A DNA stretch of 64,000 nt from a virus (IMGVR_UViG_3300022915_000001:9210-73209), one strand, 5' to 3'. Positions 32,716-56,417 are shown, counted from the stretch's first letter. Translations and numbers: made by a program. The notes: generated by a model not told the origin, from the letters alone.

Positions 32716-32831
32716 GTTTCACCTCAGAAAATCCACCGCGAATGGGACGGCCGGCGCTGCGCGGCATTGGCGATGGTGCGCTGGCGCCGGCCTCATCGAG
32801 GTGAAGTCGACAATTTGAGCGTAACACGCCC

Positions 32832-32860
32832 TTGCCGCTTTGCGCAAAAGAAAGTAAGAT
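32832..32860 (+). promoter_or_regulatory. Sigma70-like promoter
   Basis: TTGCCG-17-TAAGAT upstream of the 32876 ORF. Confidence 0.5.
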
Positions 32861-32875
32861 CCCTTAGAGGGGGCC

Positions 32876-34669: not shown

Positions 34670-34906
34670 TCACGGGGCGAGCACCAGTTCCATGCCGCGC
34701 TTGGTGGCGCGGCTCAGTTCAAGCCTGATATCGGCTTCCTGAAGGACGAGGGCCAGGATGACGCCCATCACCGGCCCCGTCTTCTTGTCTTCGAGCGGCA
34801 CGCGCACCCAGACCGTGCGCTCCGCTTCGTCGATCCCGGTCTCGTAGTGCAAACCCGACAGGTCGACGGCTTCCTTCACCTTCCAGAGGCGCTCACTCAT
34901 CGTCAT
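34670..34906 (-). CDS. Hypothetical protein, 78 aa
   Basis: Start overlaps the stop of the MTase alpha ORF (ATGA). Confidence 0.55.
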   Translation of the reverse strand: MTMSERLWKVKEAVDLSGLHYETGIDEAERTVWVRVPLEDKKTGPVMGVILALVLQEADIRLELSRATKRGMELVLAP

Positions 34907-36860
34907 CGTCTGGCTCCTTCCTCATCTTCTTCGATCCAGGCGCGGAGGAACCACGCCGCCTGCTCGGCATTGATCGCATCGCCCGCACCGCGCAGTCCCA
35001 GAACACGGTAGGCAAGCCTTGGAGCCAGAGGGAAAAGGCTGGGTGCAGTTGGCCGGAGGCTGGGACCGTCGCCCACCCGCTGCGGCCGCGTAAGAACCCA
35101 GTCGGCCCCGGCCCAGAATCCGTTGACGGGGCCGGCCACTGGCACACCTCCTGCGTCACGCGCGACGAGTCGTTGTTCCCGGCGGCGTTGTAGCCCTTCT
35201 GCGACGGCGTCCCCGCCATCGGCGTCGGCCACCCCGTCAACTGCGCTTCGCGGCCCAGGTACGTCGACTCGCTCACGCTCGAATCGTGCTCCCGCGGCGA
35301 GTGGGGCGTCGGCCACCCCGTCAGGCGCGTCTGGTCGATCAGCGTCCAGCCGTCGTGGTGCTCCGACTCCGGGTCGAAGCGGGTGCACGTCGCGTTGGCC
35401 GCGTTGGTCGAGTCCCGCATCGTCGGGGTCGCCCAGCCAGCGAGTTTGGCCTGGTTCTCCAGCCCAATCTGCGCCTTCGAGCCATCCGCTTTCTTGCCGA
35501 TATCCTCGGCGTTCCCGCTGATCCTGCCCCCATTCGGCGTATTCGGGGTCGCCCAGCCCGTCAGCATCACCTCGTCGTTCAGGTTCATCATCCCGTGGCC
35601 CTCTTTGACCTTCGCCGCCACGTATTCCGGTGTGTGCGCCGGGAAGTGGTCCCGCTTCTGCGGCGTCGACCATCCCGCCAGCCTCGTCTGGGAAGTCAGC
35701 GTATCCGAAACGCCCCGGTCGATCCGCTCCCCCGAGCTCTCGCCGTCCTCGCGGGTCGGAGTCGCCCATCCCGCCAACGTCGCCACCTCCGACAACGGGC
35801 GCGAGTTGTGGTCGAGCGGCACGCCCCCCGTCTCCCCGCTCTTCCAGTCCCTGGACTGCGGAGAGGGCCACCCCGTCAGGTGCGCCGTCACCGCCAGCGA
35901 CGAGCACCTGTCTTCCCTCTGGGCTTCCCTCTCCATCCCGTCCACCGTCAGCCGCGATTTGTTGTCGTCGGCTCCCTGCGGCGTCGGCCACCCCGCCAGC
36001 GTCACCGCCCCGTCCAAATCCATCCCCCCCTCGTGCCGCTCGGTCGGCGGCTTCACGTTGATCCCGCCCCCCGGCAGCGTCGGCGTGGGCCACCCCGCAA
36101 GCTGGGCAAAGTTCCGCAGCCGCTGGTCGGTCGTCTTCATCTCGTCGGTCCCCACCCGCGCCTCGGCCAAGGGGCCGTCCCGCTTGTGGTCCTCGGTCGT
36201 CGGCGTCGGCCACCCTGCGAGCATGGCAAAATCCCTCAAATCGCTCGAGTGATCCGGGTCGCCCGCCCTGTGCGCCCTGCCCCCGCCCGATCCCTCCGAG
36301 GCGTTCGGCGTCGGCCACCCCGCCAACTGCGAAACCACTCCCAGGTCCGTCAGCGAGATCCCCATCTCCGATCCCCGCTCCACGCTCCTCCGCTTCCGGT
36401 CCAAAAACGCCTCGGGGGAGCCGTTCGCCGGTTGGGCGCAGGGCGTAGGCCAGCCCTGCTCCCCAATAGAGCCGCTGGCGGAGATGCGGCGCCCCCGCCC
36501 CCGCTGCGCAGGTATCGAGAACCCCGATGGTGTAATCCGCTGCGTCCAGGTCAGTTCGTACAAGGTCGAGCCAGCCGAGGCCGTCAATCGACGATACCTG
36601 CTCCCCAAAGACGCAGACAGGTCTTCGTGCTTCGATGAGACGAAAGAAGTCTGGCCAAAGATGGCGCGGATCGTTTTCCGCTTCCCTTTTTCCCGCCGCT
36701 GAGAACGGGCCGCAGGGGCAGCTTCCGGTCCAGCAGGGGAAATCGTCGCTGAAGCCGGCCCGCCTGAGGGCGTAGCTCCAGACTCCGATCCCGGCGAAGA
36801 AGTGGCACTGGGTATATCCGTCGAGATCTCCCGGTTGAACAAGCTGAATTGGCCGCTCAT
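34893..36860 (-). CDS. Overlapping-frame MTase partner (beta frame) with 12 GW(P/A/S)(T/S)P modules and a motif IX-like end
   Basis: 655-aa ORF lying almost wholly within the alpha gene, with 12 repeats and a C-terminal GQLHPAFSLWLQGLP. Its ATG overlaps the TGA of ORF 36857-37066. Confidence 0.8.
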   Translation of the reverse strand: MSGQFSLFNREISTDIPSATSSPGSESGATPSGGPASATISPAGPEAAPAARSQRREKGKRKTIRAIFGQTSFVSSKHEDLSASLGSRYRRLTASAGSTLYELTWTQRITPSGFSIPAQRGRGRRISASGSIGEQGWPTPCAQPANGSPEAFLDRKRRSVERGSEMGISLTDLGVVSQLAGWPTPNASEGSGGGRAHRAGDPDHSSDLRDFAMLAGWPTPTTEDHKRDGPLAEARVGTDEMKTTDQRLRNFAQLAGWPTPTLPGGGINVKPPTERHEGGMDLDGAVTLAGWPTPQGADDNKSRLTVDGMEREAQREDRCSSLAVTAHLTGWPSPQSRDWKSGETGGVPLDHNSRPLSEVATLAGWATPTREDGESSGERIDRGVSDTLTSQTRLAGWSTPQKRDHFPAHTPEYVAAKVKEGHGMMNLNDEVMLTGWATPNTPNGGRISGNAEDIGKKADGSKAQIGLENQAKLAGWATPTMRDSTNAANATCTRFDPESEHHDGWTLIDQTRLTGWPTPHSPREHDSSVSESTYLGREAQLTGWPTPMAGTPSQKGYNAAGNNDSSRVTQEVCQWPAPSTDSGPGPTGFLRGRSGWATVPASGQLHPAFSLWLQGLPTVFWDCAVRAMRSMPSRRRGSSAPGSKKMRKEPDDDDE

Positions 36861-40121: not shown

Positions 40122-40568
40122 ATGAAACAAGTGAACCGCAAAGTCGAAGGGACCGCAACTGTGATCCGGTTGGGATCGTGGATGAGCGCGACGGGGCCGC
40201 AGTGGGAAAGCCCGAGCGTGACGTTCGCCATCGCCGGGGAGGATCTGACGTGGAGGGCGAGTGACGAGCACGCCGTAAGGGATCTCATGGAGGGGGAGGA
40301 AGTCTGGATACGTGGCTTCGTCAACGCCGAGGGCCGCATCACACGGGTCAAGTTCTGGCGCGGTCAGCCGGTGGAGGACGGGCCGAGCGCCGAGCAGAAG
40401 GCGGCTCTGGCGAAGTTCGCGGCGGCGAACGGGAGGACGTGGAAGCAAGCTCTGGGGCATTGCTGGATGACGGGCATCTACAGCCGGTCTGACGATGCCG
40501 GTTACTTGCAGCAGGTCAGGAACCAGTTCGGGCCGTCGTGGCTGATGCGGTACAAGCTCACCAGCTAG
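40122..40568 (+). CDS. Hypothetical protein, first gene of the plus-strand small-gene array
   Basis: C-terminal EQKAALAKFAAANGRTWKQAL...LQQVRNQFGPSWL domain. Confidence 0.65.
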   Translation: MKQVNRKVEGTATVIRLGSWMSATGPQWESPSVTFAIAGEDLTWRASDEHAVRDLMEGEEVWIRGFVNAEGRITRVKFWRGQPVEDGPSAEQKAALAKFAAANGRTWKQALGHCWMTGIYSRSDDAGYLQQVRNQFGPSWLMRYKLTS

Positions 40569-40572
40569 TGAA

Positions 40573-40651
40573 ACCGGCGGTGATACGCCGGTAATCGGGG
40601 GATAGCCTCCCCGGTCATGAAGATCAGGCTAGGTGAAGGAAGAGAGCAATG
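40573..40651 (+). repeat. Two-hairpin leader element, copy 1 (variant)
   Basis: ACCGGCG/CGCCGGT stem, GGGGA/TCCCC stem, then AGGTGAAGGA...ATG. Confidence 0.65.
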
Positions 40652-40945
40652 AAGTCGATAATACTGGGGCTGCTCCTTGCAGCGATGATGTACGGCGAGG
40701 CGGTCCATTTCGGAGCGAACTCGAAGGTGTTTCACACGTCAACGACGTGCAGCGCCAAGGGCGGGAAGCACAAGCTCACGTCAGAGCGCAGCGTAGCCGA
40801 GGCCCACGGGATGCGGCTGTGCAAGCGGTGCGCCGGTCATGCGGCGGCTTGCACGACGGACGCCGACTGCGAGGCCAAGGCGAAGGCGAAGGCGGCGAAG
40901 ACGGGCAACGGCAAGTGGGCGCAGGTAGCGCAGGAGGTGAAGTAG
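40649..40945 (+). CDS. Small protein with a signal-peptide-like N-terminus and an Ada-like zinc-binding motif
   Basis: MKSIILGLLLAAMMYG, then VFHTSTTC...AEAHGMRLCKRC. Confidence 0.6.
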   Translation: MKSIILGLLLAAMMYGEAVHFGANSKVFHTSTTCSAKGGKHKLTSERSVAEAHGMRLCKRCAGHAAACTTDADCEAKAKAKAAKTGNGKWAQVAQEVK

Positions 40946-40947
40946 TC

Positions 40948-41394
40948 ATGGCGATGACAACGGAAGCGTGGCGCGAGGTGATGATCGCGATGCCCCCGGC
41001 GCAGTTGGCGGCGGTGAAGGCGGCGATGGAGACGCTGAGGGCGTGGCCCGAGTTCAACCGGGAGTGGGGCTGGACGGGGATCAAGTCGCTGGAGGTGACG
41101 GCGGCTTACGCGATGGAGCACCAGCGCAACGGGGGCCGGGGCTGGATGGATCAGACGCCCGAGGAGCGGCGGCGGTACTACGACGGGGCCGAGTGGCGGT
41201 TCGTCGATCCGCTCCCGGCGGTCAACGTGGACCAGTTGCGTGAGCAATGGGAGGGGGAAGACCTGGAGTTGCTGAACGAGGCGACGAAGGGCTGTGAGGG
41301 GGAGATGACGTGCCGGGAGTTGGCGAGGCGGCTGAACAACGTGGGCGGCGTCATCACCGAGGCAGAGTTGGAGGCGATGACCGGGGCTAGGTAA
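40948..41394 (+). CDS. Hypothetical protein
   Basis: SD GGAGGTGA; protein-like. Confidence 0.6.
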   Translation: MAMTTEAWREVMIAMPPAQLAAVKAAMETLRAWPEFNREWGWTGIKSLEVTAAYAMEHQRNGGRGWMDQTPEERRRYYDGAEWRFVDPLPAVNVDQLREQWEGEDLELLNEATKGCEGEMTCRELARRLNNVGGVITEAELEAMTGAR

Positions 41395-41476
41395 GCATCG
41401 CGGAGGCGGCTCTGTCGCAGCAGAGCCGTTGCCACTGGGATGATTCCCGAATTCTTGATACGAGGTGAAAGACATG
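41393..41476 (+). repeat. Two-hairpin leader element, copy 2
   Basis: AAGCATCGCGGA-GGCGGCTCTG/CAGAGCCGTT-CTGGGATGATTCCC...GAGGTGAAAGACATG. Confidence 0.85.
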
Positions 41477-42019
41477 ACTGGATTGTTAGGCGACGTGAAG
41501 CAGTGGGCGCTGGTGCTCGAAGGCGGGGACGGGGGCCGGGGCTTCCCGAGCCGAGTGTACCTGTACCCGAGCCGGGATGCGGCTGAGAAGGGGTTGCAGG
41601 ACTACGTGCGGCGCAACGGCGGCTTCGAGGGGTTGGAGGACGACGAGGACAACTTCGACATGGACGACGCGATCCGCGAGTACTTCGACGAGGAGCGCGA
41701 GGACTACTCCATCGGCGTGGTGCTCGAACCGGAGCGCGTGGTGATCGAACCGGCACTGGCGGTCCCGCCGGTAACGTGGGGGCCTGAGAACCCCGAGGTT
41801 GCGCGGCTGACCCGTGAGGCGCTGGAAGCTGGCCGCTGGTTCTGGCTGAAAGACGCCGTGGGCGAGGAGGCGACGATGAGCGCGTGCCAACGGTACGCCT
41901 ACAGCCGGTTGAACAACGAGCTACTGGCTCTGGGTGCGCCGGTCCCCTCAGGGGACGAGTTGTATGAGTGGGCGTTGGCGAAGTGGGGCAAGGACCGGCT
42001 GCATCCCAAGGGCCGGTAA
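41474..42019 (+). CDS. Hypothetical acidic protein
   Basis: GAGGTGAA SD plus ATG. Confidence 0.65.
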   Translation: MTGLLGDVKQWALVLEGGDGGRGFPSRVYLYPSRDAAEKGLQDYVRRNGGFEGLEDDEDNFDMDDAIREYFDEEREDYSIGVVLEPERVVIEPALAVPPVTWGPENPEVARLTREALEAGRWFWLKDAVGEEATMSACQRYAYSRLNNELLALGAPVPSGDELYEWALAKWGKDRLHPKGR

Positions 42020-42089
42020 GTCTCGCGGCGGCGGCTCTGAGTGTGAACAGAGCCGCACACTGGGAAACTTCCCGAGGTGAAAGAACATG
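42020..42089 (+). repeat. Two-hairpin leader element, copy 3
   Basis: GCGGCTCTG/CAGAGCCGC, CTGGGAAACTTCCC, GAGGTGAAAGAACATG. Confidence 0.85.
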
Positions 42090-42287
42090 GCAAAAGCAAA
42101 GGCAATCCTTCCGAGCCTGGATCGCGTGATGGCGGCAGTGCGTTCGGACGAGTTCATGGCGTTCTGCGTGGCGTGCGGGGACGAGGCGTATGGCCTGGAA
42201 CCGGACACTCGCGCCGAGCCGTGCGAGGCGTGCGGCAAGAAGGCTGTTTTCGGAGCGCAGGAACTGCTGCTCAGGATGGTGGCGTGA
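42087..42287 (+). CDS. Zinc-ribbon microprotein, 66 aa
   Basis: FCVACG...EPCEACGKKAVFG. Confidence 0.7.
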   Translation: MAKAKAILPSLDRVMAAVRSDEFMAFCVACGDEAYGLEPDTRAEPCEACGKKAVFGAQELLLRMVA

Positions 42288-42562
42288 TGGCGGCGGCAAC
42301 GACGGCAACGCAGATGATCGTGGCCGTGGGCCAGATCGTCCAGTGGAACGTGGGCGGCGTGGCGGTCCAGGTGATCGTGTGCGACGTGAAGACGGCGTGG
42401 GGCAAGAACCGGCTGCTGATCGAGCCGAAAGCCGGTCACGGGCGCGTCTGGGTCGAACTGTCCAGCGTCTCGCTCCCGGCGGCGGCGGCGTTCCAGTGCG
42501 CGGTCTGCCGTGGCGGGATCGAAGTGAACGGCGCGTGCTGGGAATGCGGGGACGTGCGATGA
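42287..42562 (+). CDS. Hypothetical protein with a C-terminal zinc finger
   Basis: TGATG overlap; CAVC...CWEC. Confidence 0.6.
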   Translation: MAAATTATQMIVAVGQIVQWNVGGVAVQVIVCDVKTAWGKNRLLIEPKAGHGRVWVELSSVSLPAAAAFQCAVCRGGIEVNGACWECGDVR

Positions 42563-42876
42563 AGATCCTCGTGACCGGGAACACGTACCCTCATCGCGTG
42601 GCTCTCCGCGCAATGGGCGGCGAGTGGGATGCGGGGAGCAAGGGCTGGAGGTTCGACGAGGCTGACGCCGAGGCGGCTCGTGAGATCGTGGCCGGTCCCG
42701 CACCGGCCAAGCGCGTGACCGGCGGCGGTTCGCGTGGGCGGTTCGGGCGCAAGGGCGGCGGCGGCTCAGGCATGGGCGGGGAGATCATCTACACGACGTT
42801 TTCCTCAGGGGAGACGGTGTACCGCAACGCCCGAGGGCGATGCGAGGACGCGCCCTGTTGCGGTTGTTGCTCCTGA
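42559..42876 (+). CDS. Hypothetical protein
   Basis: GNTYPHRVALRAMGGEWD...GWRF N-terminal domain; ends RCEDAPCCGCCS. Confidence 0.65.
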   Translation: MKILVTGNTYPHRVALRAMGGEWDAGSKGWRFDEADAEAAREIVAGPAPAKRVTGGGSRGRFGRKGGGGSGMGGEIIYTTFSSGETVYRNARGRCEDAPCCGCCS

Positions 42877-42881
42877 CTCAG

Positions 42882-42959
42882 AAAGCATCGCCGAGGCGGC
42901 TGTGACAGAGCCGCACTCTGGGATTCTTCCCGAAATTCAAACCGAGGTGAAACGAGATG
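42882..42959 (+). repeat. Two-hairpin leader element, copy 4
   Basis: AAGCATCGCCGAG-GCGGCT/AGCCGC, CTGGGATTCTTCCC...GAGGTGAAACGAGATG. Confidence 0.85.
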
Positions 42960-43238
42960 GGCATGACGATTGAGAAACGGGTCCAGGTGACGCTGGACTA
43001 CACCGCCGACGAGTGGGAGTTGTACTCTCACCGGCAAGGCGCGGCTGATGCGGCGTATGAGATCAACGTCGCGATTGAGACGGCGGTCAACGCCGGTCTG
43101 ACGCGCCGGGAAGTGGAGACGGCGCTCGATCCGGTGATGCACCGGCACGCCGATCTGGGCGCGTTGGACGGTGAGCCGCTCTCGAAGCTGGAGCGCATTC
43201 TGGACAAGATCTACGGCAAGGAGGCGCGGCGATGGTAG
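42957..43238 (+). CDS. Hypothetical protein, 93 aa
   Basis: ORF track; SD. Confidence 0.65.
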   Translation: MGMTIEKRVQVTLDYTADEWELYSHRQGAADAAYEINVAIETAVNAGLTRREVETALDPVMHRHADLGALDGEPLSKLERILDKIYGKEARRW

Positions 43239-43717
43239 GGCTGACGCAGGACGAGACGATGGCGGCGGTTCTCGCCGTCCTGAACCGGCGCGGCGTGAAA
43301 TCGACGCTCGAATACCCCGGCTATCTGCAAGTGGGCTTGCAGCAGTACGGCACGACGGGCGAGACGTGGAGCGGGGACGTGTACGAGAGCGAGAAGGCGT
43401 TCCTCGAAGGCGAAGCGCCGATAGAGTGCCTGACCTCCGATATCCCGGTCGAGAGCGCGGACGTGAAGCGCATCGCCGACTGGATTACGTGCAACCAGTT
43501 GCTGCCCAAGCCTGACCGGCAGCGCCAAGCGCGGCGCGAGGCGATGCAAGCCAAGTGGAACACGGCTATGAGCCTCCTGCTCGAATTGGCCGAGGACGAC
43601 GACGCCTTCAACGACGCCGTGGACGAGGACCACGGCGGGAAGTACGAACTGGAGGAGTCCTTCGACGAGTGGGTCTTCGCGACGATGGTCAAGGTGCGGT
43701 TCGTCCCGGCGAAGTAG
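43232..43717 (+). CDS. Hypothetical protein, 161 aa
   Basis: ORF track; overlaps the previous stop. Confidence 0.65.
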   Translation: MVGLTQDETMAAVLAVLNRRGVKSTLEYPGYLQVGLQQYGTTGETWSGDVYESEKAFLEGEAPIECLTSDIPVESADVKRIADWITCNQLLPKPDRQRQARREAMQAKWNTAMSLLLELAEDDDAFNDAVDEDHGGKYELEESFDEWVFATMVKVRFVPAK

Positions 43718-43781
43718 CGCGGCGGCGGCATTCTCGCGAGTGCCGTCCACTGGGAAACTTCCCGAGGTGAAAGAAAGCATG
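43718..43781 (+). repeat. Two-hairpin leader element, copy 5
   Basis: GGCGGCATTC/GAGTGCCGTC (two G-U pairs), CTGGGAAACTTCCC, GAGGTGAAAGAAAGCATG. Confidence 0.85.
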
Positions 43782-44324
43782 ACGAAGAAAGAAGCGATGA
43801 CGATGGCGGCTGAACTGGCCGTGGCATTGGGCGCGAAACGGGGCAAGGGGTTCACCGGCCATCGCTGGCTGATGGTCCCCGGCTCCTGCCTGATTGCCTA
43901 CGTGACCGGCGGCGATCACGGGCTGCGGTATGTGGTTCGCCACAACGACGGCGAGGACGTGTGCAGCGTGCGGCTGATGAAGGGCGACGGGCGCATGAAG
44001 ACGTTTCAGGAGACGGTGATCGGCGAGTCGATCCGGTTTGACCGGCAGTCGATTGTCGAGGCCATCTGGGCGAAGGCGGGAGCGCAGCATGAACTGCGGA
44101 CGCCTGACCGCTGGCCCTACCGGCCCATGACCGAGGCAGAGGCCAAGGTCAAGGCGGTCGAGACGGCGGCGCTCAACGAGGGCCGCGAGTTCCAGGCAGT
44201 GCCGGTCAGGTACGGGAGCGGCGAGACCGGCTGGGACGTTTCGCCGGTCGATCTGGACGAGCGCGTGGCGGCGGCACTCCGCGCCGAGCACGAGCGCAGC
44301 CTGTCGAAGAGGTGGCCCGAATAG
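43779..44324 (+). CDS. Hypothetical protein, 181 aa
   Basis: SD plus ATG after the repeat. Confidence 0.65.
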   Translation: MTKKEAMTMAAELAVALGAKRGKGFTGHRWLMVPGSCLIAYVTGGDHGLRYVVRHNDGEDVCSVRLMKGDGRMKTFQETVIGESIRFDRQSIVEAIWAKAGAQHELRTPDRWPYRPMTEAEAKVKAVETAALNEGREFQAVPVRYGSGETGWDVSPVDLDERVAAALRAEHERSLSKRWPE

Positions 44325-44469
44325 GGCCGCTTCGAGCGCCGGTCACGCGCGGCTGACTCCTGGAGAATCAAGGCCGGCCGGCCTTGGCGGCCCAGACCAG
44401 GCCCACGGGAGAGCTGCGCCTGGTGCGCGAGCGCCGGCAATTTTCCCAAAAAAACAATGTAACCGGCAC

Positions 44470-44522
44470 GAATAAAGTTGCGTCGTTACATTTGATCGTG
44501 ACAGAATGAAAGACGAGGTGAA
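44470..44522 (+). promoter_or_regulatory. Sigma70-like promoter (copy A of a repeated promoter)
   Basis: AATAAAG-TTGCGT-18-CAGAAT...GAGGTGAA in an AT-rich island. Confidence 0.55.
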
Positions 44523-44529
44523 ACAAGAC

Positions 44530-45234
44530 ATGGCAAATTTCCGAGACTACTTCGCGTATAACCGCGACACCGATCAGAGCGAACGGATGGCAATCCCCGA
44601 GTGGGCGCTTGCCGCCGGTTTCGAGGACGCTTCCTACTCCAACGACGTGGCGGCGCAGATGACGCTGAAGTCGAACCCGTGGATCGCGCTCTTTGTGAGC
44701 GAAGAGCATCCGCTCAACCGGGAGTACCCCGACGAGCCGCGCTACGGTCTGGGCGTGTTCCCGCTCTACGACGGCGATACCGGCGAGGCTGAGTTCTTCC
44801 TCAAGTCCGACGACGAGGCTGAGATCCTCGCGTTCCTCGCGTCCCCGCCGCCGAGGTTCACGGCGATGGCGGCTCCCGGCGCGGAGGGCGCGGCTGACCG
44901 GCCCAAGCCGATCCGGTGCGCCAGTGAGCACTGCCATCAGGAGGTGCAGCCGGTCCCCGCCGGTCTGGACCCGTCCTTGTGCGCGTTGTGCAACGCAGAG
45001 GCGGCTGAAGAGAAGTTTGAAGCCGAGCGCAAGGCGTGGGCGCGGCGTCACGGCATCGCCCAGCGCATGGTGACGGTGACCGTGGCCTCCGAGGACGGCG
45101 AGGTGCTCGATCAATTCGAGGTGCGCCACTGGCAGGACGAGGACATGGGCGAGGACGCCGAGGGCGTCTGGTCTGGCGCAGCCGAGGGGTTGCTCACGGC
45201 GCGGATACGCCGGTACGTTCACGACGGGCAATAG
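44530..45234 (+). CDS. Paralog family member 1 (IPxWA...GF domain)
   Basis: IPEWALAAGFEDASYSND...FFLKSDDEAEILAFLASPP. Confidence 0.7.
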   Translation: MANFRDYFAYNRDTDQSERMAIPEWALAAGFEDASYSNDVAAQMTLKSNPWIALFVSEEHPLNREYPDEPRYGLGVFPLYDGDTGEAEFFLKSDDEAEILAFLASPPPRFTAMAAPGAEGAADRPKPIRCASEHCHQEVQPVPAGLDPSLCALCNAEAAEEKFEAERKAWARRHGIAQRMVTVTVASEDGEVLDQFEVRHWQDEDMGEDAEGVWSGAAEGLLTARIRRYVHDGQ

Positions 45235-45245
45235 GCTCACAAGGG

Positions 45246-45310
45246 ACCGGCGCACGCCGCCGGTTCAAGTGCGAATCTATCGCAAATTCCGAGACGAGGT
45301 GAAGACAATG
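45246..45310 (+). repeat. Two-hairpin leader element, copy 6 (covariant hairpin 2)
   Basis: ACCGGCG/CGCCGGT, TGCGA/TCGCA, then AATTCCGAGACGAGGTGAAGACAATG. Confidence 0.65.
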
Positions 45311-46075
45311 ACCGAATACGATGCGGCAGAACTGGACCGCGAGATGCAGGGCCACAAGATCCCCATGTGGGCGTGGAAGGCGGGGTTCGACTGGAACTGG
45401 TTTCGCGACGACGAGATCAACTCCATCGGCGGGACGCGCGGGATGGCGCGGCTCTGGATCGCCGACAAAGGCAAGGAATCGCCCTGCCGCTACACGCTGC
45501 TGAACAGCGTCATCGACACCGACGAGACGAAGACGTTTCTCAGGACCGACGACGCCGCTGACGTGATCGCCTTCCTGGCCGATCCCCCGGCTGAGTGGAC
45601 GGCGTGGGAAGTGGCGAACGAGATCATGCACGATGCAACCGATTTGGGCGGCAAGGGGTTCGCGCTGGCCGAGATCAAGTGCTTCGAGGATCTGCACAAC
45701 CATCTGGACCCGAACGAGTACGGCTCCAGCGCACGGCAAGCGGCTGACGGCACGCCGGGAGCGCCGGGATGGCATCCCGACGAAACGCTCGATTGCGCGT
45801 ACTGGAACGACGTTCACGAGCGCGTCGATCAGTGGATCAGAAACGGCTTCTGCTTCGCACGCATGAGGGCCGAGCAGCGGTACGCCAAGGCGAAGAAGCT
45901 GCTCGCCGAGGCGGTGGAGGCGGGGATGGTGTACGGCGCTGCCGTCCAGACCTTGCAGGACGAGATGCGCGTGGCCTTCTCAGACAACCTGCTCGTCATC
46001 AGCGAAGCCGATATCGAGTACGGCACGACGTTCGATCAGTTGTGCGATGCCGTGGGCGTGGAGGTGTCGAAATGA
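45308..46075 (+). CDS. Paralog family member 2
   Basis: IPMWAWKAGFDWNWFRDD...TFLRTDDAADVIAFLADPP. Confidence 0.7.
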   Translation: MTEYDAAELDREMQGHKIPMWAWKAGFDWNWFRDDEINSIGGTRGMARLWIADKGKESPCRYTLLNSVIDTDETKTFLRTDDAADVIAFLADPPAEWTAWEVANEIMHDATDLGGKGFALAEIKCFEDLHNHLDPNEYGSSARQAADGTPGAPGWHPDETLDCAYWNDVHERVDQWIRNGFCFARMRAEQRYAKAKKLLAEAVEAGMVYGAAVQTLQDEMRVAFSDNLLVISEADIEYGTTFDQLCDAVGVEVSK

Positions 46076-46515
46076 CGGCGCTCTCGCCCGAGGCCATCGC
46101 CGAGACCATCTACGTCAAGGCGTGCGAGGCCAAGCGCGGCTGGAATCCCACGGTGACGCCGCCGCGCCTGACCAACGACCAGAAGTGGGCGGCGGCGGTG
46201 ATCGCGTGGGGGCAGTTCCGCGCCGATTACCGCCGGTCTTTGAAGCGCCACGGCGAGTGGCACGAGGTCTGCGAGGGCATGGACGCCAAGATCCAGGCGT
46301 ATGCCTTGGAGGGCGGCGACGGCGGCGTGTCGGTCTGGGCCGACTACTGCGACGACTTCCAGTACGTCTGGGACGTGCTGGAGGCTATGGGCGCGGTCTG
46401 GGAGATACCGGACGAGGCGCAGGACGAGGACGACTGGCAGTGCGGCGGCGGCGAGACCGACGCCATCGAAGAGGTCATGGACATGGTGAACAGTCCCGGC
46501 TTCGAGCGCCGGTAG
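46072..46515 (+). CDS. Hypothetical protein
   Basis: ATGA overlap. Confidence 0.6.
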   Translation: MTALSPEAIAETIYVKACEAKRGWNPTVTPPRLTNDQKWAAAVIAWGQFRADYRRSLKRHGEWHEVCEGMDAKIQAYALEGGDGGVSVWADYCDDFQYVWDVLEAMGAVWEIPDEAQDEDDWQCGGGETDAIEEVMDMVNSPGFERR

Positions 46516-46584
46516 AGTGTCGCGGAGGGCGCAGTGACAGTGCGCCACGCTGGGATACTTTCCCGAGAAGAGGTGAAGGCAATG
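46516..46584 (+). repeat. Two-hairpin leader element, copy 7
   Basis: TCGCGGAG-GGCGCA/TGCGCC, CTGGGATACTTTCCC, GAGGTGAAGGCAATG. Confidence 0.85.
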
Positions 46585-47121
46585 GCAAAGTTTCAGGATT
46601 ACTACGACCAGGAGATTCCCCAGTGGGCGCTGGACATGGGGTTCAGCGACTGGAGTTGGCACGGCGATCTGGCCGCGATCATGAAGTGGGACCGGCATAC
46701 CGGCGTGGGCGCGGAGAACGGCGTGTCGCTCTGGGTAGGCTTCGAGATCGACAGCGACTACTTCGCTGGCTGCGAGAAGCAGCCGCGCTTCCAGGTGACG
46801 GTCGAAATCGGCCACTCGTCCACGACGTACCTGGAGACCGAGGACGAGGACGAGGTGCGCCGGTTCCTCCAGGAGCCGAGCGGCGCATTCCGGGCGGCGC
46901 TGGACGAGGCGAGGGCGGCTGAGGGGTACAACGGCGTGGCGGCGATGCTCTCCGACGCCAAGGCGGCACAGGAGATCTACTGGAGGGCGCTGGACGAGTT
47001 GGCGAAGCAGATGCGCTTTGCCTTCGACAACGACTCGATCACGCTGGAGCGCACCAAGGGCGCGGCGCTGCCGAGCCTTCCCGCGCTGGTGCAGCTGTAC
47101 GAACTCCACGAGGAGCGGTAA
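46582..47121 (+). CDS. Paralog family member 3
   Basis: IPQWALDMGFSDWSWHGD...TYLETEDEDEVRRFLQEPS. Confidence 0.7.
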   Translation: MAKFQDYYDQEIPQWALDMGFSDWSWHGDLAAIMKWDRHTGVGAENGVSLWVGFEIDSDYFAGCEKQPRFQVTVEIGHSSTTYLETEDEDEVRRFLQEPSGAFRAALDEARAAEGYNGVAAMLSDAKAAQEIYWRALDELAKQMRFAFDNDSITLERTKGAALPSLPALVQLYELHEER

Positions 47122-47190
47122 GCATCGCGGAGGGCGCACCGGCAAACTGTGCGCCGCTCTGGGATTCTTTCCCCTGAGGTGAAGACGATG
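47120..47190 (+). repeat. Two-hairpin leader element, copy 8
   Basis: AAGCATCGCGGAG-GGCGCAC/GTGCGCC, CTGGGATTCTTTCCC, GAGGTGAAGACGATG. Confidence 0.85.
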
Positions 47191-47436
47191 AAGTACAGAA
47201 GAACGGCTGAGAACCGGGAACGCGCGGCGCGAGCCGAGGGCGTGCTGCTCTCCTATGCCAAGTGGTGCAACGAGGAGGCCATCTCCGATTCGACCGTGCG
47301 TGACCTGATCCAGGACATTATGCACTGGGAGGCTTGCGAGAACAAGCTGACCGGCGACAAGGCGCGGGACTCCGTTTCGGCGGCGTGCGAGACGGCGTGG
47401 TGGGACTTCGCCAACGAGACGGGAGGGCGGTCATGA
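47188..47436 (+). CDS. Hypothetical protein, 82 aa
   Basis: SD plus ATG after the repeat. Confidence 0.65.
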   Translation: MKYRRTAENRERAARAEGVLLSYAKWCNEEAISDSTVRDLIQDIMHWEACENKLTGDKARDSVSAACETAWWDFANETGGRS

Positions 47437-47648
47437 CCGTGCGCGAGGTCTTCTTCGTAGAGGAGGTGCGGCGCGTCCGGTCCCGCTCGAAGGTGCGCGA
47501 CGTGTTCATGACCGTGGCCGAGGCTGCGGACGCGATCAAGGCGTGGGAGCGCGACGACGCCTTCGCGCTGGGGCCGTACAAGGCGGCGAAGATTCGCCGC
47601 CATATCGTGCGCGGCGTGGCCGAGATGCTTGAGGAGGTGTCCTGGTGA
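47433..47648 (+). CDS. Hypothetical protein, 71 aa
   Basis: ATGA overlap. Confidence 0.55.
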   Translation: MTVREVFFVEEVRRVRSRSKVRDVFMTVAEAADAIKAWERDDAFALGPYKAAKIRRHIVRGVAEMLEEVSW

Positions 47649-47944
47649 GGCGGCGCTGGCGCGAGGCGCTGGTACTGGCGGCTGGACCGGCGGCGGTCCT
47701 CGCCGCCCTGCTCTGGGCCTGGTCACCAGGCGCGGACCAGGCGCACAAGGCCGGCCGCGAAATCGCCGGCGACTGGCCGGCAGCCCTCGAGACCGACGCC
47801 GCGGCGAACGCGGCCGGCCTTGCCGGTTGCGTGACCGACTGGGAGTGCGAGCTCGCCGAACGGGCGGCTATCGCCGCTTTCGAGATCCTATGCTTCGAGG
47901 GGAAGGTTCCCTGCATCGACCGCAGGAAAGAGGTGAAGAAATGA
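47645..47944 (+). CDS. Hypothetical protein with an N-terminal hydrophobic segment
   Basis: ALVLAAGPAAVLAALLWAW; GTGA overlap. Confidence 0.5.
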   Translation: MRRRWREALVLAAGPAAVLAALLWAWSPGADQAHKAGREIAGDWPAALETDAAANAAGLAGCVTDWECELAERAAIAAFEILCFEGKVPCIDRRKEVKK

Positions 47945-48318
47945 TGACAACGAAACGGGCGTGGACGCTGATGTACCGCGCCATGCGGACGGGCCGGTCC
48001 TGCCAGACGGCTGCCGGGGATTACCGGGAGTGGTGTGCGCGGGACTTCTACGGGAACCGGCCCGAGGGCGTGAGCGAGGAGGCGTGGCGTGCCTTCTGCG
48101 ACTACGCCGAGGAGGAGGCCGACTGTGCGCGGCGCGGCGTCAGGCGGCTGCTCTGGAAGGCCACGTACCTGAACGCCGGGGGCAAGGTGCTCTCGCGCTA
48201 CGGCCAGTGGTACAGCGTGTCCGATTATCTGGGAGCGCCCGAGCGGCATCTCAGGATCGAGGCGAGCTTCGCCCAGCGGCTCAAGCGGTGCGCCGAGATC
48301 GCACGGGAGATCCAGTGA
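47941..48318 (+). CDS. Hypothetical protein, 125 aa
   Basis: SD GAGGTGA. Confidence 0.6.
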   Translation: MMTTKRAWTLMYRAMRTGRSCQTAAGDYREWCARDFYGNRPEGVSEEAWRAFCDYAEEEADCARRGVRRLLWKATYLNAGGKVLSRYGQWYSVSDYLGAPERHLRIEASFAQRLKRCAEIAREIQ

Positions 48319-48539
48319 TGGACGCCCACGATTCCCGGCAGGACTACGGCACGCCCGAGGAGATCATGGCGTGGGTCATGGCGAAGCCGGTCAACCGGCG
48401 CGTGCGCGTGCGGTGCGGCTCCTGCTACGCGCAGGATCTGGAGACGTGCGCTCACCAGCCTGACCGAGTCAGGTGCGGCTACTGCTACGCCCGAGGGGAG
48501 CAGCACTGTCCGCACGCAGGCGCACTCACGGGCGGCTGA
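48318..48539 (+). CDS. Cys-rich microprotein
   Basis: CGSC...C...CGYC...C. Confidence 0.55.
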   Translation: MDAHDSRQDYGTPEEIMAWVMAKPVNRRVRVRCGSCYAQDLETCAHQPDRVRCGYCYARGEQHCPHAGALTGG

Positions 48540-48552
48540 ATGATCGTGCCGC

Positions 48553-48605
48553 AAATAAAAGTTGCGGCGGGTATTTGAAAGTGTCATCATCATAGAGAGG
48601 TGAAG
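48553..48605 (+). promoter_or_regulatory. Sigma70-like promoter (copy B of a repeated promoter)
   Basis: AATAAAAG-TTGCGG-17-CATCAT...GAGGTGAA; aligns with copy A. Confidence 0.55.
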
Positions 48606-48608
48606 TTC

Positions 48609-48785
48609 ATGTTTGGAAAACGGTTCGACAAATTCTCCGAGGCCGAGCAGACGCTGATCGCGTCCGCGCTGGGCATCGCGATTTCGTATTGGCAGATCGA
48701 TGCGGCTGCCGCGCCGGTCCTGGCCGAGAGTTTCGGCAAGTTTACCGGCGAGGCCCAGAAGCTCCGCGAAGAGTTGGGGTACTAG
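48609..48785 (+). CDS. Hypothetical protein, 58 aa
   Basis: SD plus ATG. Confidence 0.55.
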   Translation: MFGKRFDKFSEAEQTLIASALGIAISYWQIDAAAAPVLAESFGKFTGEAQKLREELGY

Positions 48786-48789
48786 GGCG

Positions 48790-49029
48790 ATGGCGAAGCG
48801 CACCTATGTACATGGCGAGTGCTTTGGGAGCGTGTTCCGCTTCTCGCAGACCAAGTGGCGGCTCATGCTGAAGGAAGTGGCCGCTGGCCGGGACGTGGAC
48901 TACGCCAAGTACGGCGTCGAAGTGGCCGTGATCGATCACCACATAACGGACCTCTGGCAGGAGGACGCCGTCGAACTCCTGAAGGATTCGACCATGCGGC
49001 TGACCAAGAAACAGAGGCGCGGCGAGTAG
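48790..49029 (+). CDS. Hypothetical protein, 79 aa
   Basis: Protein-like and packed. Confidence 0.55.
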   Translation: MAKRTYVHGECFGSVFRFSQTKWRLMLKEVAAGRDVDYAKYGVEVAVIDHHITDLWQEDAVELLKDSTMRLTKKQRRGE

Positions 49030-49030
49030 G

Positions 49031-49106
49031 AAAGCATCGCGCGTGCGGCACTGATTCGGACAGTGCCAATCGCGGGACATTTTCCCGAGGTGAAACAACA
49101 GCAATG
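49031..49106 (+). repeat. Two-hairpin leader element, copy 9
   Basis: AAGCATCGCG...GGCACTG/CAGTGCC, GCGGGACATTTTCCC, GAGGTGAAACAACAGCAATG. Confidence 0.8.
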
Positions 49107-49391
49107 GTATTGACGATTTTGCAATGGAGGGCTTACGGAGACGACGAGGACTGCCTCAGTGTCGCGCTCTACAACGACGACGCGAGCACCGATCACGGGT
49201 TCGATCAGGCGCGGCGTCTGGCGAAGCGGGAAGCCAAGCAGCACGGGCTGCGCTACGATCCCGACGCCGAGAACATGGGCGATGAACCGGACGATCTGAT
49301 CTTCATCAACTCGCTGACCTACGACGACGGCGAAGTGCTGAAGGCCAACAACGGCAAGAAGTACAAGATCCGTTTCGAGGAGGTGCAGTGA
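49104..49391 (+). CDS. Hypothetical protein, 95 aa
   Basis: SD plus ATG after the repeat. Confidence 0.65.
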   Translation: MVLTILQWRAYGDDEDCLSVALYNDDASTDHGFDQARRLAKREAKQHGLRYDPDAENMGDEPDDLIFINSLTYDDGEVLKANNGKKYKIRFEEVQ

Positions 49392-49846
49392 TGGACAGGC
49401 AAAGATACCTGACGCGCAAGGACGAGAACGTGGGCGTGGGCGAGTTCGACAGTATCGCGTGGGCCTTCGAGGTCCACGTCAAGCAGCCAGACCGGCCCGA
49501 GCTTCAGTTCGCCGTGATGCACGGCCACAACGAGGACGCGCCCGACTACATCGACTTCTACCAGCAAGCCGAGCCGTCGTACTTCGACGTACCGGCCTTG
49601 ACCTGGCGTGCCGAGGCGGCCAAGATCCTCGCAGGCGACGAAGGGGACGATCCGCTGGCCGAGTGCCGGCGGCTCCTGGAGGCGGCGCAGGACGCGCAGT
49701 ACGCCTACGAAGATGCGCTGGGCCGTCTCGAGCGCGGCATGGAGAAGGTATTCGGCGAATCGCTCGAGATCGAGGGCGAGGATATCTCCGAGGGCGTGGA
49801 CCTCGAAGACCTGATCGCGCAGCACGGACTGGAGATGCCCAAATGA
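49388..49846 (+). CDS. Hypothetical acidic protein
   Basis: GTGA overlap. Confidence 0.65.
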   Translation: MMDRQRYLTRKDENVGVGEFDSIAWAFEVHVKQPDRPELQFAVMHGHNEDAPDYIDFYQQAEPSYFDVPALTWRAEAAKILAGDEGDDPLAECRRLLEAAQDAQYAYEDALGRLERGMEKVFGESLEIEGEDISEGVDLEDLIAQHGLEMPK

Positions 49847-50439
49847 GCGCGACGAAGGAGTGGCATTTCTTCTACGATCACGCGCCGTTCTCGTTCAACC
49901 GCGCCAAGGAGACGCAACTCGAAGGCAGGATGCGGTGCGCCAACGAACTGATGATGGCCGAGGAGTACGCCAAGGAGTCCGACTGGGAGTACGACTGGGA
50001 TATCGATCCCGACGCCGAGCCGGTCGATCCCGCCGACAAGGACGAGGCCGGGGAGGCGCTCTACTGCCGGTTGGTAAACCGCCACGGTCTGGTGCTCGAA
50101 TCGCTCTACGGGATCTGGGAGCCGACGAAGGAGTACCGGCGCGTCGTGGAAGCCGAGCTTGCGCTGGAGGCGATGGCACGCGAACTGGGAATGGCGCGGC
50201 CCTGCGGGCAATGCGGCCGGCCGGTTTCCAAAGGGCCGGTTGGCTACGACGAGGAGTGCCGGTGCGCCGAGCACGGCGGCGAGACGACGCCGGTCCCGCT
50301 GACCGACGACGATCTGTGCCTGCTGATTACCGGCTGCGACGATCACGAGGGCCAGGAGTGCTTCGAGGAACTGGGGAGGCGCTTACGGGCGGCTCGCGTC
50401 GAGTTCCGCGTGCGCCGCCGGGGAGCGTTGAAGCGGTAA
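49843..50439 (+). CDS. Hypothetical protein with a zinc finger
   Basis: ATGA overlap; CGQC...CRC. Confidence 0.65.
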   Translation: MSATKEWHFFYDHAPFSFNRAKETQLEGRMRCANELMMAEEYAKESDWEYDWDIDPDAEPVDPADKDEAGEALYCRLVNRHGLVLESLYGIWEPTKEYRRVVEAELALEAMARELGMARPCGQCGRPVSKGPVGYDEECRCAEHGGETTPVPLTDDDLCLLITGCDDHEGQECFEELGRRLRAARVEFRVRRRGALKR

Positions 50440-50510
50440 GAGAGTCGCGGAGGGCGCACTCGCGGTGAGTGCGCTCCGCTGGGATTCTTTCCCGTTGAGG
50501 TGAAGACATG
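50440..50510 (+). repeat. Two-hairpin leader element, copy 10
   Basis: TCGCGGA-GGGCGCACTC/GAGTGCGCTC, CTGGGATTCTTTCCC, GAGGTGAAGACATG. Confidence 0.85.
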
Positions 50511-51724: not shown

Positions 51725-51770
51725 AAAAACAAAAAGGACGGCGGCCCAGCGAGGGTATCACGCCGTCCTT
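51722..51770 (-). terminator. Rho-independent terminator (minus strand; possibly bidirectional)
   Basis: AAGGACGGCG/CGCCGTCCTT 10-bp stem followed on the minus strand by TTTGTTTTTC. Confidence 0.6.
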
Positions 51771-51817
51771 CGTTGTTATGTGGAAGTCCGCTCAGTGTAC
51801 AACAAAAGGAGAAGGAC

Positions 51818-52009: not shown

Positions 52010-52309
52010 ATGCCTACCAGTCTCACGCTCACGCTCCGCTGCCAGAACAAGTCGCTCTCGCCGTCGATTCCGGTGACCGGCACGCCCAGTGCCGAGGGCG
52101 TGAACGTGCAGTTGCAACTGATGAGCGCCGGCGCCGTGGCAACGGCGGCGTCCGTCCAGATCACCGTGCCGATGGTGAGCGACACCTTCGTGATGGGCGG
52201 CTACTACGCCGTGAACATCATCGACGGCGCGGCCCCGAGCGGCGCTAGCGTGTGTCCTGATCCTGTCCCACAAGCAGCGGCGGCGAAGGCCCCTCCCCCG
52301 GCAAAATAA
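52010..52309 (+). CDS. Hypothetical protein, 99 aa
   Basis: ORF track; beta-rich. Confidence 0.5.
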   Translation: MPTSLTLTLRCQNKSLSPSIPVTGTPSAEGVNVQLQLMSAGAVATAASVQITVPMVSDTFVMGGYYAVNIIDGAAPSGASVCPDPVPQAAAAKAPPPAK

Positions 52310-53057
52310 CCGTCACCACGGGCGGCTGGTCGAAGACACGCGCGGCGATGGCCTGGTCTGCCATGAGGCGCACGATATTCGGATCGTTGGTAGTGGTGGA
52401 GAGGTGGCCGAGGTAGAGGTTGTGCGTGCGCGAACTCATGTGATCGGTGATCCACTGACAGGCGGCTGAGTTGGACAGGTGGAACTTCGAGATGCGCTGC
52501 TTGAGCGTGTAGGCGTATGGGCCGGCAGCCAGCATATCGGGATCGTGATTGGATTCGAGGAGCAGGAAGTCGGCCATCGCGAGGTACTCGCCGAGGTGCG
52601 AGTCGATCTCGCCGAGGTCCAAGGCGAACGTGGCGCGGTTCCCCTCCCTGTCCGCGACAGTGAACCCCAGGGGATCGCCGCAGTCGTGCTTCACCGTGAA
52701 CGTCTCGCAGTGGAACGCGCCTACCTCGAAGGTGTCGAACTGCGCGACGTTCCGATACCAGTGCGGCGAGATGCCCTTCTTCAGCGCATCGTAGGTGCGC
52801 CACGTACAGTAGACCGGCACGAGCCGGCCGGCACGCCGCCAGTGCCTGACGAGGTTGGCGAGGCCCCCGGCGTGATCGAGGTGCGGATGCGTGACGAGGA
52901 CCGCGCTGATCTCGTCGAGGTCTTCGCCGATGGCTTTCAGGCGGGCCCGGGTATCGGCTACCGACAGACCGGCGTCGATCAACAGGCGGGTGCCATCGCT
53001 CGAGACGAAGGTCGAATTGCCGGCGCTGGACGTGGCGAGGACGGAGATCTTCATCAT
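52245..53057 (-). CDS. Metallo-beta-lactamase-fold hydrolase (YycJ/WalJ-like nuclease)
   Basis: LATSSAGNST, LLIDAG, THPHLDHAGG (HxHxDH), VKHD, ESNHD...H...HLS. Confidence 0.9.
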   Translation of the reverse strand: MMKISVLATSSAGNSTFVSSDGTRLLIDAGLSVADTRARLKAIGEDLDEISAVLVTHPHLDHAGGLANLVRHWRRAGRLVPVYCTWRTYDALKKGISPHWYRNVAQFDTFEVGAFHCETFTVKHDCGDPLGFTVADREGNRATFALDLGEIDSHLGEYLAMADFLLLESNHDPDMLAAGPYAYTLKQRISKFHLSNSAACQWITDHMSSRTHNLYLGHLSTTTNDPNIVRLMADQAIAARVFDQPPVVTVILPGEGPSPPLLVGQDQDTR

Positions 53058-55604: not shown

Positions 55605-56417
55605 ATGAGCTTCCTCAATTCACTCAACAGCGCCCACTCGCGCGAGCGTTACGCCGCGGTCTGGCGCGGCTTCGACCGGGACCTGACGGCGGCCGGCATC
55701 CAGAGCTACGTGGCCGAGCGCCGGGACGCTGGCTATGCCCCGGCCACGGTCAACCTGCACCTGAGCGCCCTGAAGCACCTCGCGCGGCAGACGGCCCCGG
55801 CCTCCGAGCTTGCGGCCATCGACGCCATCAAGGGGATGCCGATCCGCGGCGTGCGAATGGGAACGTGGCTCTCGCTGGATCAGGTTACCGATCTCCTGTC
55901 CCCGGGCCCGGGCCTCCAGGCGGCGCGGGACCGCGCCTTGCTGGCGCTCCTGACCGGCTGCGCCCTGCGCCGGTCAGAACTGGCAGACCTGAAATTTACC
56001 CACTTGCAGACGCTGGACGGGCGTCTCGTGCTCCTGGACCTCGTAGGGAAGGGCCGCAGGGTACGGACGGTCCCGGTCCCGTCCTGGGGCATCCTGGCGC
56101 TGAATTCCTGGCTGGAAATGGCCGGGGTCACGGAAGGCCCCGTCCTCAGGCGGGTGCACCGGGGAACGGTGCAAGCGGAAGGTCTGACACCGGACCACAT
56201 TCACGAGGTGGTCAGAAGGGCCGGCTGCCGTATCGGCGTCCCCAAGCTGGCCCCCCACGATTTGCGGAGAACCTTCGCAAGACTCGCGCTCAAGGGACGC
56301 GCCGATCTCACCCAGATCCAACTGACCTTGGGCCACTCCAGCGTGGCCGTGACCGACAGGTATCTGAAGTCCACGGTCGACCTGGAAAACCCAGCGTGTG
56401 ACGCTATCCGAATTTGA
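55605..56417 (+). CDS. Tyrosine recombinase (XerC/D-like core-binding plus catalytic domains, no arm-binding domain)
   Basis: RDRALLALLTGCALRRSEL (R), GKGRRVRTVP (K), PHDLRRTFA (H-x-x-R), LGHSSVAVTDRY (H, Y). Confidence 0.92.
   Translation: MSFLNSLNSAHSRERYAAVWRGFDRDLTAAGIQSYVAERRDAGYAPATVNLHLSALKHLARQTAPASELAAIDAIKGMPIRGVRMGTWLSLDQVTDLLSPGPGLQAARDRALLALLTGCALRRSELADLKFTHLQTLDGRLVLLDLVGKGRRVRTVPVPSWGILALNSWLEMAGVTEGPVLRRVHRGTVQAEGLTPDHIHEVVRRAGCRIGVPKLAPHDLRRTFARLALKGRADLTQIQLTLGHSSVAVTDRYLKSTVDLENPACDAIRI

Follow-up and report, generated by a model that had tools for sequence, protein, structure and literature searches.

What separates the crowded small genes of a phage module from one another, and does the separator act in RNA or in DNA? 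We addressed this question in a 64,000-nt stretch of viral DNA (IMGVR_UViG_3300022915_000001:9210-73209), here called the window, which covers bases 9210-73209 of a 73,209-bp virus record and has ~63% G+C. Its source is an uncultivated soil phage with a genome of ~73 kb. On the plus strand, at ~40.1-52.0 kb, ~40 small genes form a module that we infer to be early or accessory, and a structured element of ~65 bases recurs between them. Each copy starts at the stop codon of one gene and stops 1-15 nt short of a Shine-Dalgarno sequence (SD; GAGGTGA), which is followed by the ATG of the next gene. As judged from the sequences, these elements are a real family of RNA-type structures under selection, co-oriented with the genes that they precede.

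Identification of the element family

The original prediction listed ten copies of a single leader element in this region. We built a covariance model (R1) from element copies and ran it on the whole 73-kb genome, using two refined models (R2 and R3) beside it. R1 returned exactly eight strong matches, with scores of 60-73 bits and E values between 1e-13 and 1e-16. They all lie on the plus strand and confirm eight of the ten copies (Table 1). The remaining two, at 40573 and 45246, scored 19 bits or less and belong to another leader type, described below. A pattern search with TGGGA-N2-6-TCCC-N0-25-GAGGTGA gave seven matches, again all on the plus strand and at 41.4-50.5 kb, where 0.02 were expected. 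The other predicted details were correct: elements start at the stop codon, carry stems of 6-10 bp with G-U pairs, and head one to five genes each.

Relatives of the phage were sought by several routes. A terminase search led to ten IMG/VR contigs with 81-86% amino-acid identity, four of them ~73-74 kb long; the relatives' genomes are ~75% identical to the window phage across half their length. In a metagenome scan with the neighboring gene for a metallo-beta-lactamase (MBL)-fold protein, close relatives were few (L056-L060) and distant ones numerous. The module was also compared by megablast with 50,697 phage records, which yielded no match, and a terminase profile search of GTDB genomes revealed distant matches only (26-32% identity), with no close prophage.

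In the relatives, elements occupy the same hypervariable small-gene module and always lie on the coding strand. Seven copies were found in G001, nine in G009, five in G004, four in G003 (two strong, two found by the refined models only) and two each in G007 and G010; two metagenome contigs contributed further copies. The family totals 41 distinct copies. For copy 9, homology to G001 starts at 49027, two bases ahead of the TAG of the repeat unit (49029-49031). The module of G009 (L039, 69.8-72.1 kb) seems to carry indels, as genes after elements are cut to 15-21 amino acids; the open reading frames (ORFs) are intact in the near-identical metagenome contig L058.

The original prediction named the PeSL cassettes of T4-type phages, the start-associated sequences of mycobacteriophages and the put antiterminator of HK022 as analogues, and did not recognize the motif as any of them. 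Our comparisons agree for the first two (see below); put itself was not tested. No Rfam family matched the window at gathering thresholds. When the threshold was relaxed to E<=5 for 40.4-50.7 kb, only two unrelated chance matches appeared, both away from elements. Several weaker candidates for membership were rejected. The IMG/VR contigs L029, L032 and L034, found as DNA-pattern matches, scored 18-22 bits, have 48-52% GC and are probably chance SD matches; L031, found in the same way, gave no model match at E 0.01 or better and is probably likewise a chance SD match. A weak R2 match at 32744-32813 falls in a region of divergent promoters that contains a long GC hairpin, and is not an element copy.

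Covariation and competing folds

Covariation was assessed in alignments of 35-41 copies from seven related genomes. The upper, variable hairpin was paired in 94% of cells, and six of its six pairs changed on both sides, just as predicted for a stem whose sequence varies while pairing is kept. The conserved flanks of this hairpin do not behave as single-stranded boxes, and the original layout needs correcting on this point: the box on the 5' side (AAGCATCGCGGAG) can pair with the one on the 3' side (CTCTGGGATTCTT). In our models, this box-box pairing, which is new relative to the first reading, can extend the upper hairpin to the stop codon and fold the element into one irregular hairpin of ~20-26 bp.

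The outer helix (16 pairs) was tested on an alignment that had not been fitted to the box-box pairing, with 500 shuffles as control. It was 75% paired, compared with 69.8+-0.8% in the shuffles (0 of 500 reached 75%) and 35-55% in slid registers. Informative positions included 19:65 (AU 16, GU 11, GC 4), 20:64 (GC 22, CG 5, UG 3), 8:75 (AU 9, GC 8) and 12:71 (AU 7, UA 6). Compensatory changes were also found within single genomes. The mid-stems CGCAGGGA, CGCGCCGG, CGCGGGCC and CGCGCTGA all occur in G009, each with a complementary 3' arm. Within the window genome (G000), copy 9 carries CGCG/CGCG in place of CGGAG/CTCTG, and the basal stem of copy 7 (AGAGTGTC/GATACTTT) shows a compensatory change relative to copy 10. 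Mid-stems that differ yet remain complementary within one genome are hard to reconcile with recognition by one sequence-specific DNA-binding dimer.

At the base of the structure, a run of purines that lies at the stop codon or behind it (GGGAAG, GGAAAG, AGAGAGT or GGAAGTA) is complementary, in several registers, to a pyrimidine tract ahead of the SD. These basal arms had a folding energy of -8.0 kcal/mol versus -4.6 kcal/mol in control windows, with p<0.05 in 14 of 41 copies. Single-sequence folding gave the long hairpin as the minimum-energy structure in 34 of the 41. It mostly comprises ~18-26 pairs (range 11-31 in traceable copies) and is predicted to have internal loops. Its top is variable and covaries, its middle is conserved and holds a fixed G.G mismatch, and its base is formed by the purine and pyrimidine tracts. 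The stop codon lies at the first paired base or up to ~12 nt upstream of it. The distance between the boxes ranges from ~20 to 37 nt, and this spacer is a covarying palindrome.

The second hairpin of the original layout (GGGA/TCCC) draws on the same G residues as the long hairpin, such that the two folds compete. The two-hairpin layout thus stands as one of two alternatives and not as the sole fold; on average it was 2.4 kcal/mol less favorable than the long hairpin. As GGGA/TCCC is invariant in the core family, covariation support for it is neither gained nor lost. A change from GGGA/TCCC to GCGA/TCGC, which had been put forward as covariation, rests solely on the two copies outside the family.

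In 28 of 41 copies, folding favored the sense strand over its complement (by a mean of 3.0 kcal/mol, p=0.003), and G.U pairs numbered 103 in the sense strand versus 68 in the complement. The inner hairpin contained seven G.U and no A.C combinations. Covariation, co-orientation with genes and the better folding of the sense strand together bear out the original prediction of a phage structure under selection. RNA is favored as its level of action by the strict co-orientation, the fixed stop-to-SD register, the variable box distances and the compensation within genomes.

Position of the elements within operons

Genes within the blocks of the module overlap at ATGA or TGATG junctions, and overlapping genes within a cassette are translationally coupled. 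As a consequence, elements and AT-rich, promoter-like gaps account for nearly all junctions at ~40.5-50.5 kb where genes do not overlap. A strict scan for sigma-70-like consensus sequences across 38.5-52.5 kb revealed no promoter. Two promoter-like sites were read from the sequence (Table 1). Both are of the extended -10 type (TTGCG-N, 17-18 nt, TG-N-CA-NN-AT), lie behind A-rich tracts and occupy the only AT-rich gaps of the module; look-alikes exist in G007 and G010. A terminator-pattern scan returned fewer matches than shuffled sequences, and the sole match at an element was the weak 5-bp GGGA/TCCC stem of copy 2 (41436). As the promoter-like and terminator-like sites lie elsewhere, the elements appear to sit inside operons.

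These observations also bear on whether the elements could themselves be transcription signals, i.e. phage-specific promoters, intrinsic terminators or put-like antiterminators. They are repeated, intergenic and co-oriented, and intergenic repeats of halovirus HF2 do carry promoters (PMC8707807). However, sigma-70-like hexamers are lacking, U-tracts are absent save for the one weak match in copy 2, and the variable box spacing is incompatible with a promoter. Separate promoter-like and terminator-like sites are available in the same module, eight to nine antiterminators per genome would be without precedent, and no Rfam family was matched. We regard a role as transcription signals as extremely improbable.

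Two related ideas were rejected. One was that of hairpin promoters like those of phage N4, served by a giant virion RNA polymerase. The giant ORF of the window matches a portal/MuF-type PHROG, no polymerase family is among its PHROG matches, and the stems and loops of the elements are variable. A sigma-54 site was ruled out on reading the sequence.

Elements and cassette shuffling

The original prediction proposed that the elements also serve as recombination handles for shuffling gene cassettes. Similarity of the module to its relatives takes the form of short nucleotide islands, three of which are elements alone, with 85-87% identity and unrelated flanks. A flanking gene is common to both members of 15 between-genome element pairs: in eight pairs it is the downstream gene alone, in six the upstream gene alone, and in one pair both flanks are shared. 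The genes F18, F94 and F54 keep their element across genomes. F18 has an element upstream in G000 and G001; in G010 it lacks one and overlaps the upstream gene.

Comparison of gene content among relatives found synteny broken at nearly every element, but the contrast with other junctions was not robust. Junctions with elements were conserved in 0% of comparisons and element-free junctions in 5-10%. Leaving out paralogous families and the closest genome pair, or keeping them in, shifted the p value of this difference between 0.009 and 0.58. In contigs built from reads, a related strain differed in the loop region of copy 3, and contigs broke near repeats; three joints were identified, 0 of 3 at elements. 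The recombination handle as stated is therefore not upheld, and a recombination role for the elements is possible.

A stronger version of this idea holds that the element is a selfish or recombinogenic repeat, similar to repetitive extragenic palindromic (REP) sequences, miniature inverted-repeat transposable elements or the promoter-early stem-loops (PeSL) of T4-type phages. Such a repeat would colonize new intergenic sites or be swapped from one to another, would drive cassette shuffling and would contribute little to expression. The elements that form the sole conserved island between genomes, the rarity of pairs with both flanks in common, the presence of an element upstream of F18 in some genomes but not in G010 and the PeSL precedent (PMC2839356) all fit this explanation. 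On the other side, the REP-associated tyrosine (RAYT)/Y1 transposase (PF01797) is absent from the 73-kb genome, whereas control genomes gave matches. The recombinase at 55605-56417 is Xer-like and not an integron integrase: XerC models matched it best (106 bits), while the integron-integrase model reached 37 bits against a cut-off of 265. Element-free junctions are also rarely conserved, the joints in metagenome contigs do not fall at elements, and the fixed stop-to-SD register points to a role in expression. Overall, we consider a selfish repeat very unlikely.

A proposed role in mRNA processing and translation

What, then, might the elements do? We place even odds on their being cis-acting intercistronic structures that provide processing, stability and independent translation starts in polycistronic small-gene mRNAs. 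The specific steps, namely an RNase III-type cut, a 3' barrier and refolding of GGGA/TCCC at the new 5' end, are put forward only tentatively. A double-strand-specific endoribonuclease, most simply host RNase III, would recognize the conserved lower stem with its G.G mismatch and cut there, as in T7. The upstream RNA would retain the upper hairpin as a barrier to 3' exonucleases. The released 3' arm could then refold into GGGA/TCCC at the new 5' end, directly ahead of the SD, where it would shield the RNA of the downstream cassette while its ribosome binding site stays open. Even without cleavage, the hairpin could insulate the SD from upstream sequence and uncouple the translation of each cassette from that of the preceding one. 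In agreement with this, shuffling the upstream sequence lowered predicted SD accessibility in 32 of 41 copies. Sequestration of the SD was ruled out on reading the sequence.

Several results weigh against the processing proposal and the long hairpin on which it builds. The gain in SD accessibility is small (0.51 versus 0.46). The phage genome encodes no RNase III, so the nuclease would have to be the host's. The sequencing runs found to contain the phage are recorded as DNA; two wastewater runs labeled RNA-Seq contain small shares of its sequence, and the one examined looked like DNA. About a quarter of the outer-helix cells are unpaired, and basal pairing is weak in some copies. RNAalifold, given the 35-copy alignment, picks the two-hairpin fold, and covariance models with either fold score held-out copies about equally. 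We therefore describe the element as having two nearly isoenergetic folds and not one. Finally, the outer helix contains 55 G.U versus 61 A.C combinations and thus no excess of G.U, such that this count does not favor RNA over a DNA-strand hairpin.

At the DNA level, the boxes would be an imperfect inverted repeat for a phage DNA-binding protein, or would form a cruciform or single-strand hairpin, as proposed for the extended start-associated sequences (ESAS) of cluster K mycobacteriophages. Besides the absent G.U excess over A.C, the layout is close to that of the start-associated sequences (SAS) and ESAS: inverted repeats with variable spacers just before the SD and start, in one orientation and at non-structural genes only (PMC3203893). 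However, the element boxes lie anywhere from ~20 to 37 nt apart around a spacer that forms a covarying palindrome of its own, a single genome can contain several mid-stem sequences that differ and are still complementary, and the sense strand folds more stably than the opposite strand. Pope et al. dismissed RNA pairing in ESAS since departures were uncompensated; departures in the element are compensated. A DNA-level site consequently seems quite unlikely to us.

The two near-equal folds could alternatively work as a translational operator or ribosome-actuated switch. A ribosome at the stop codon would open the lower stem and let the 3' arm refold, or a phage RNA-binding protein would dock on the invariant C-G/G.G/C-G core, setting initiation of the next cassette in either case. 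The stop codon at or within ~12 nt upstream of the first paired base, the near-equal energies of the two folds in almost all copies, the invariant nucleotides around a fixed mismatch and the tendency of the element to move with its downstream gene (F18, F94, F54) all fit such a switch. The SD, however, lies outside both folds and is about half open in either, leaving no obvious on and off state. No RNA-binding protein was identified either, and the small genes match no family. We judge this explanation unlikely. In a bistable form of it, which we offer as speculation with a low chance of being right, a single helix would have both the upstream stop codon and the downstream SD at its base. The terminating ribosome would melt the lower stem, and the 3' arm would flip to GGGA/TCCC. 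This flip might hand the ribosome or its 30S subunit across the structured spacer, as a bacterial analogue of ribosome shunting, or expose a site for a dedicated phage factor. If so, each plug-in cassette would bring its own stop-to-start adaptor.

A second leader type

The two sequences excluded by the covariance models (copies 1 and 6 of the original list) lack TCGCGGAG and have a different second hairpin. They have in common with the core family only the hairpin-hairpin-SD layout. In copy 1, the second hairpin is CGGGGGA/TCCCCG. Copy 6 has look-alikes in G003 at 63079-63176 and 60480-60560 (L047), and its second hairpin differs from that of G003 by one compensatory change, TGCGA/TCGCA to CGCGA/TCGCG. 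These leaders represent a second, rarer type that is conserved between the window and G003.

Genome context

The structural genes of the phage lie on the minus strand in the left half of the window, and DNA reads with phage sequence come from soil and leaf-litter metagenomes. The giant ORF of ~3,700 amino acids may encode a 'polyvalent' injected protein. Between the structural and non-structural arms, the divergent intergenic region at 32716-32875 carries a long GC-rich hairpin (~15 bp) between SDs of both strands and is probably a regulatory region. None of the small module genes matched a family. Two paralogous families of small genes have three members each in the module (one at 41474-42019, 43232-43717 and 46072-46515; the other at 44530-45234, 45308-46075 and 46582-47121), which indicates duplication inside the array. 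The N-terminus of the MBL-fold protein showed weak similarity to beta-CASP RNases, RNase Z and Apyc1; it may be an RNase, a DNase or a cyclic-nucleotide phosphodiesterase. Together, the Xer-like recombinase and the ParB-N protein give a hint that the phage is temperate and may persist as a plasmid prophage.

Table 1. Coordinates of elements, other leaders, signal-like sites and genes, counted from the first base of the window. R1, first covariance model; ddG, difference in folding energy.
Feature	Position	Strand	Remarks
Element copy 2	41392-41476	+	R1 61.4 bits; TAA stop, 5' box, variable hairpin, 3' box, 14-nt AT-rich insert, SD, ATG
Element copy 3	42017-42089	+	R1 69.7 bits; minimum-energy fold is the long hairpin; 86% identical to a G004 copy with unrelated flanks
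Element copy 4	42874-42959	+	R1 64.2 bits; ddG +1.9; among the few copies where the two-hairpin fold wins
Element copy 5	43715-43781	+	R1 65 bits
Element copy 7	46513-46584	+	R1 62.5 bits; ddG -7.4; 87.5% identical to G003 56215-56286
Element copy 8	47119-47190	+	R1 68.6 bits; followed by five overlapping genes
Element copy 9	49027-49106	+	R1 60.5 bits
Element copy 10	50437-50510	+	R1 73.4 bits (top score); 26-bp long hairpin
Type-2 leader (copy 1, 40573)	40566-40651	+	Missed by R1, R2 and R3; two separate hairpins and SD
Type-2 leader (copy 6, 45246)	45232-45310	+	14.5-18.6 bits; CCGGCG/CGCCGG hairpin and TGCGA-ATCTA-TCGCA
Promoter-like site	44478-44507	+	TTGCGT, 18 nt, TG-N-CAGAAT; AT-rich gap; read from sequence, below strict consensus
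Promoter-like site	48562-48590	+	TTGCGG, 17 nt, TG-N-CATCAT; AT-rich gap
Terminator-like hairpin	51736-51771	+	Near module end; A-run and T-rich stretches alongside
Giant ORF, ~3,700 amino acids	3-8075, runs past window edge	-	Portal/MuF-like stretch (phrog_21, residues 778-1102 of the window part); two further PHROG matches of unknown function
Large terminase	28608-30581	-	Minus-strand structural half
DNA methyltransferase	34893-36587	-	phrog_31772, phrog_1008
MBL-fold metallo-hydrolase	52245-53054	-	Lactamase_B_2, phrog_392; directly after module; kept in all relatives
Tyrosine recombinase	55605-56417	+	Short, Xer-like, 270 amino acids
ParB-N domain protein	61477-62685	-	

Comparison with known systems

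No parts of phage genomes are less well understood or more mosaic than the early and accessory modules, and stop-to-start repeats are carried by several unrelated phage groups, SAS/ESAS and PeSL being examples. The family described here is an unusually clean case, with 41 natural variants that carry compensatory changes, two near-equal folds and a fixed stop/SD geometry. If the elements are processing or stability signals, the T7 paradigm would reach GC-rich soil phages, and they would offer a compact, portable insulator for polycistronic designs. If they are instead ribosome-actuated switches, they would represent a new mode of gene-to-gene coupling.

The RNase III sites of phage T7 (R0.3, R1.1 and others) are related irregular hairpins of ~20 bp or more, with internal loops, that lie between polycistronic genes just upstream of the next SD, and they resemble the elements in their predicted long-hairpin fold. 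Every element copy occupies this T7-type position between stop codon and SD, in blocks bounded by promoter-like and terminator-like sites. In T7, five RNase III signals punctuate one polycistronic early RNA, and the 3' hairpins are determinants of stability (PMC3867540). The elements have no sequence relationship to these sites. They also differ in starting at the stop codon, in an upper half that covaries freely and in a small 3' hairpin that competes with the long fold.

The SAS/ESAS of cluster K mycobacteriophages combine a start-associated motif with imperfect inverted repeats of variable spacer just upstream, much like the elements. They occur as 11-19 copies in one orientation, in the non-structural half only, are tied to particular downstream gene families and have no established function (PMC3203893). 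ESAS consist of 17-bp imperfect inverted repeats with a 4-13-bp spacer; pairing is lost where departures occur, and the preferred explanation was a DNA-binding site (PMC3203893). In contrast, the element spacer is a covarying hairpin of ~20-35 nt, and departures in its arms are compensatory. A search of the 64 kb for the 13-bp SAS GGGATAGGAGCCC with <=2 mismatches gave one match, at 9565 and not at an element, where 2.0 were expected by chance.

PeSL units of T4-type phages are likewise repeated small stem-loops beside small non-essential genes in hyperplastic regions. They comprise a strong sigma-70 promoter and a terminator stem-loop and were proposed to mediate modular shuffling (PMC2839356). 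The elements differ in having no promoter hexamers and, save for one weak pattern match, no U-tract. REP sequences and bacterial interspersed mosaic elements (BIME) are repeated imperfect palindromes found soon after stop codons in operons, where they can stabilize upstream mRNA and affect translation termination. Unlike these, the elements reside in a phage and not a chromosome, have no RAYT transposase and are fused to the downstream SD.

Integron attC sites share with the elements conserved outer arms, a variable center with kept pairing, mismatched bases, a place at the stop codon of small genes that are co-oriented and lack promoters, and proximity to a tyrosine recombinase. However, no R''/R' core (RYYYAAC/GTTRRRY) was seen in the element arms by eye, with no pattern search run. 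The elements are not consistently tied to the upstream gene, and the recombinase is Xer-like. No description of the family was found in Rfam or in the literature searched, and it is apparently undescribed. Its general kind, repeated structured stop-to-start elements in the non-structural modules of phages, is known from the T7 sites, SAS/ESAS and PeSL.

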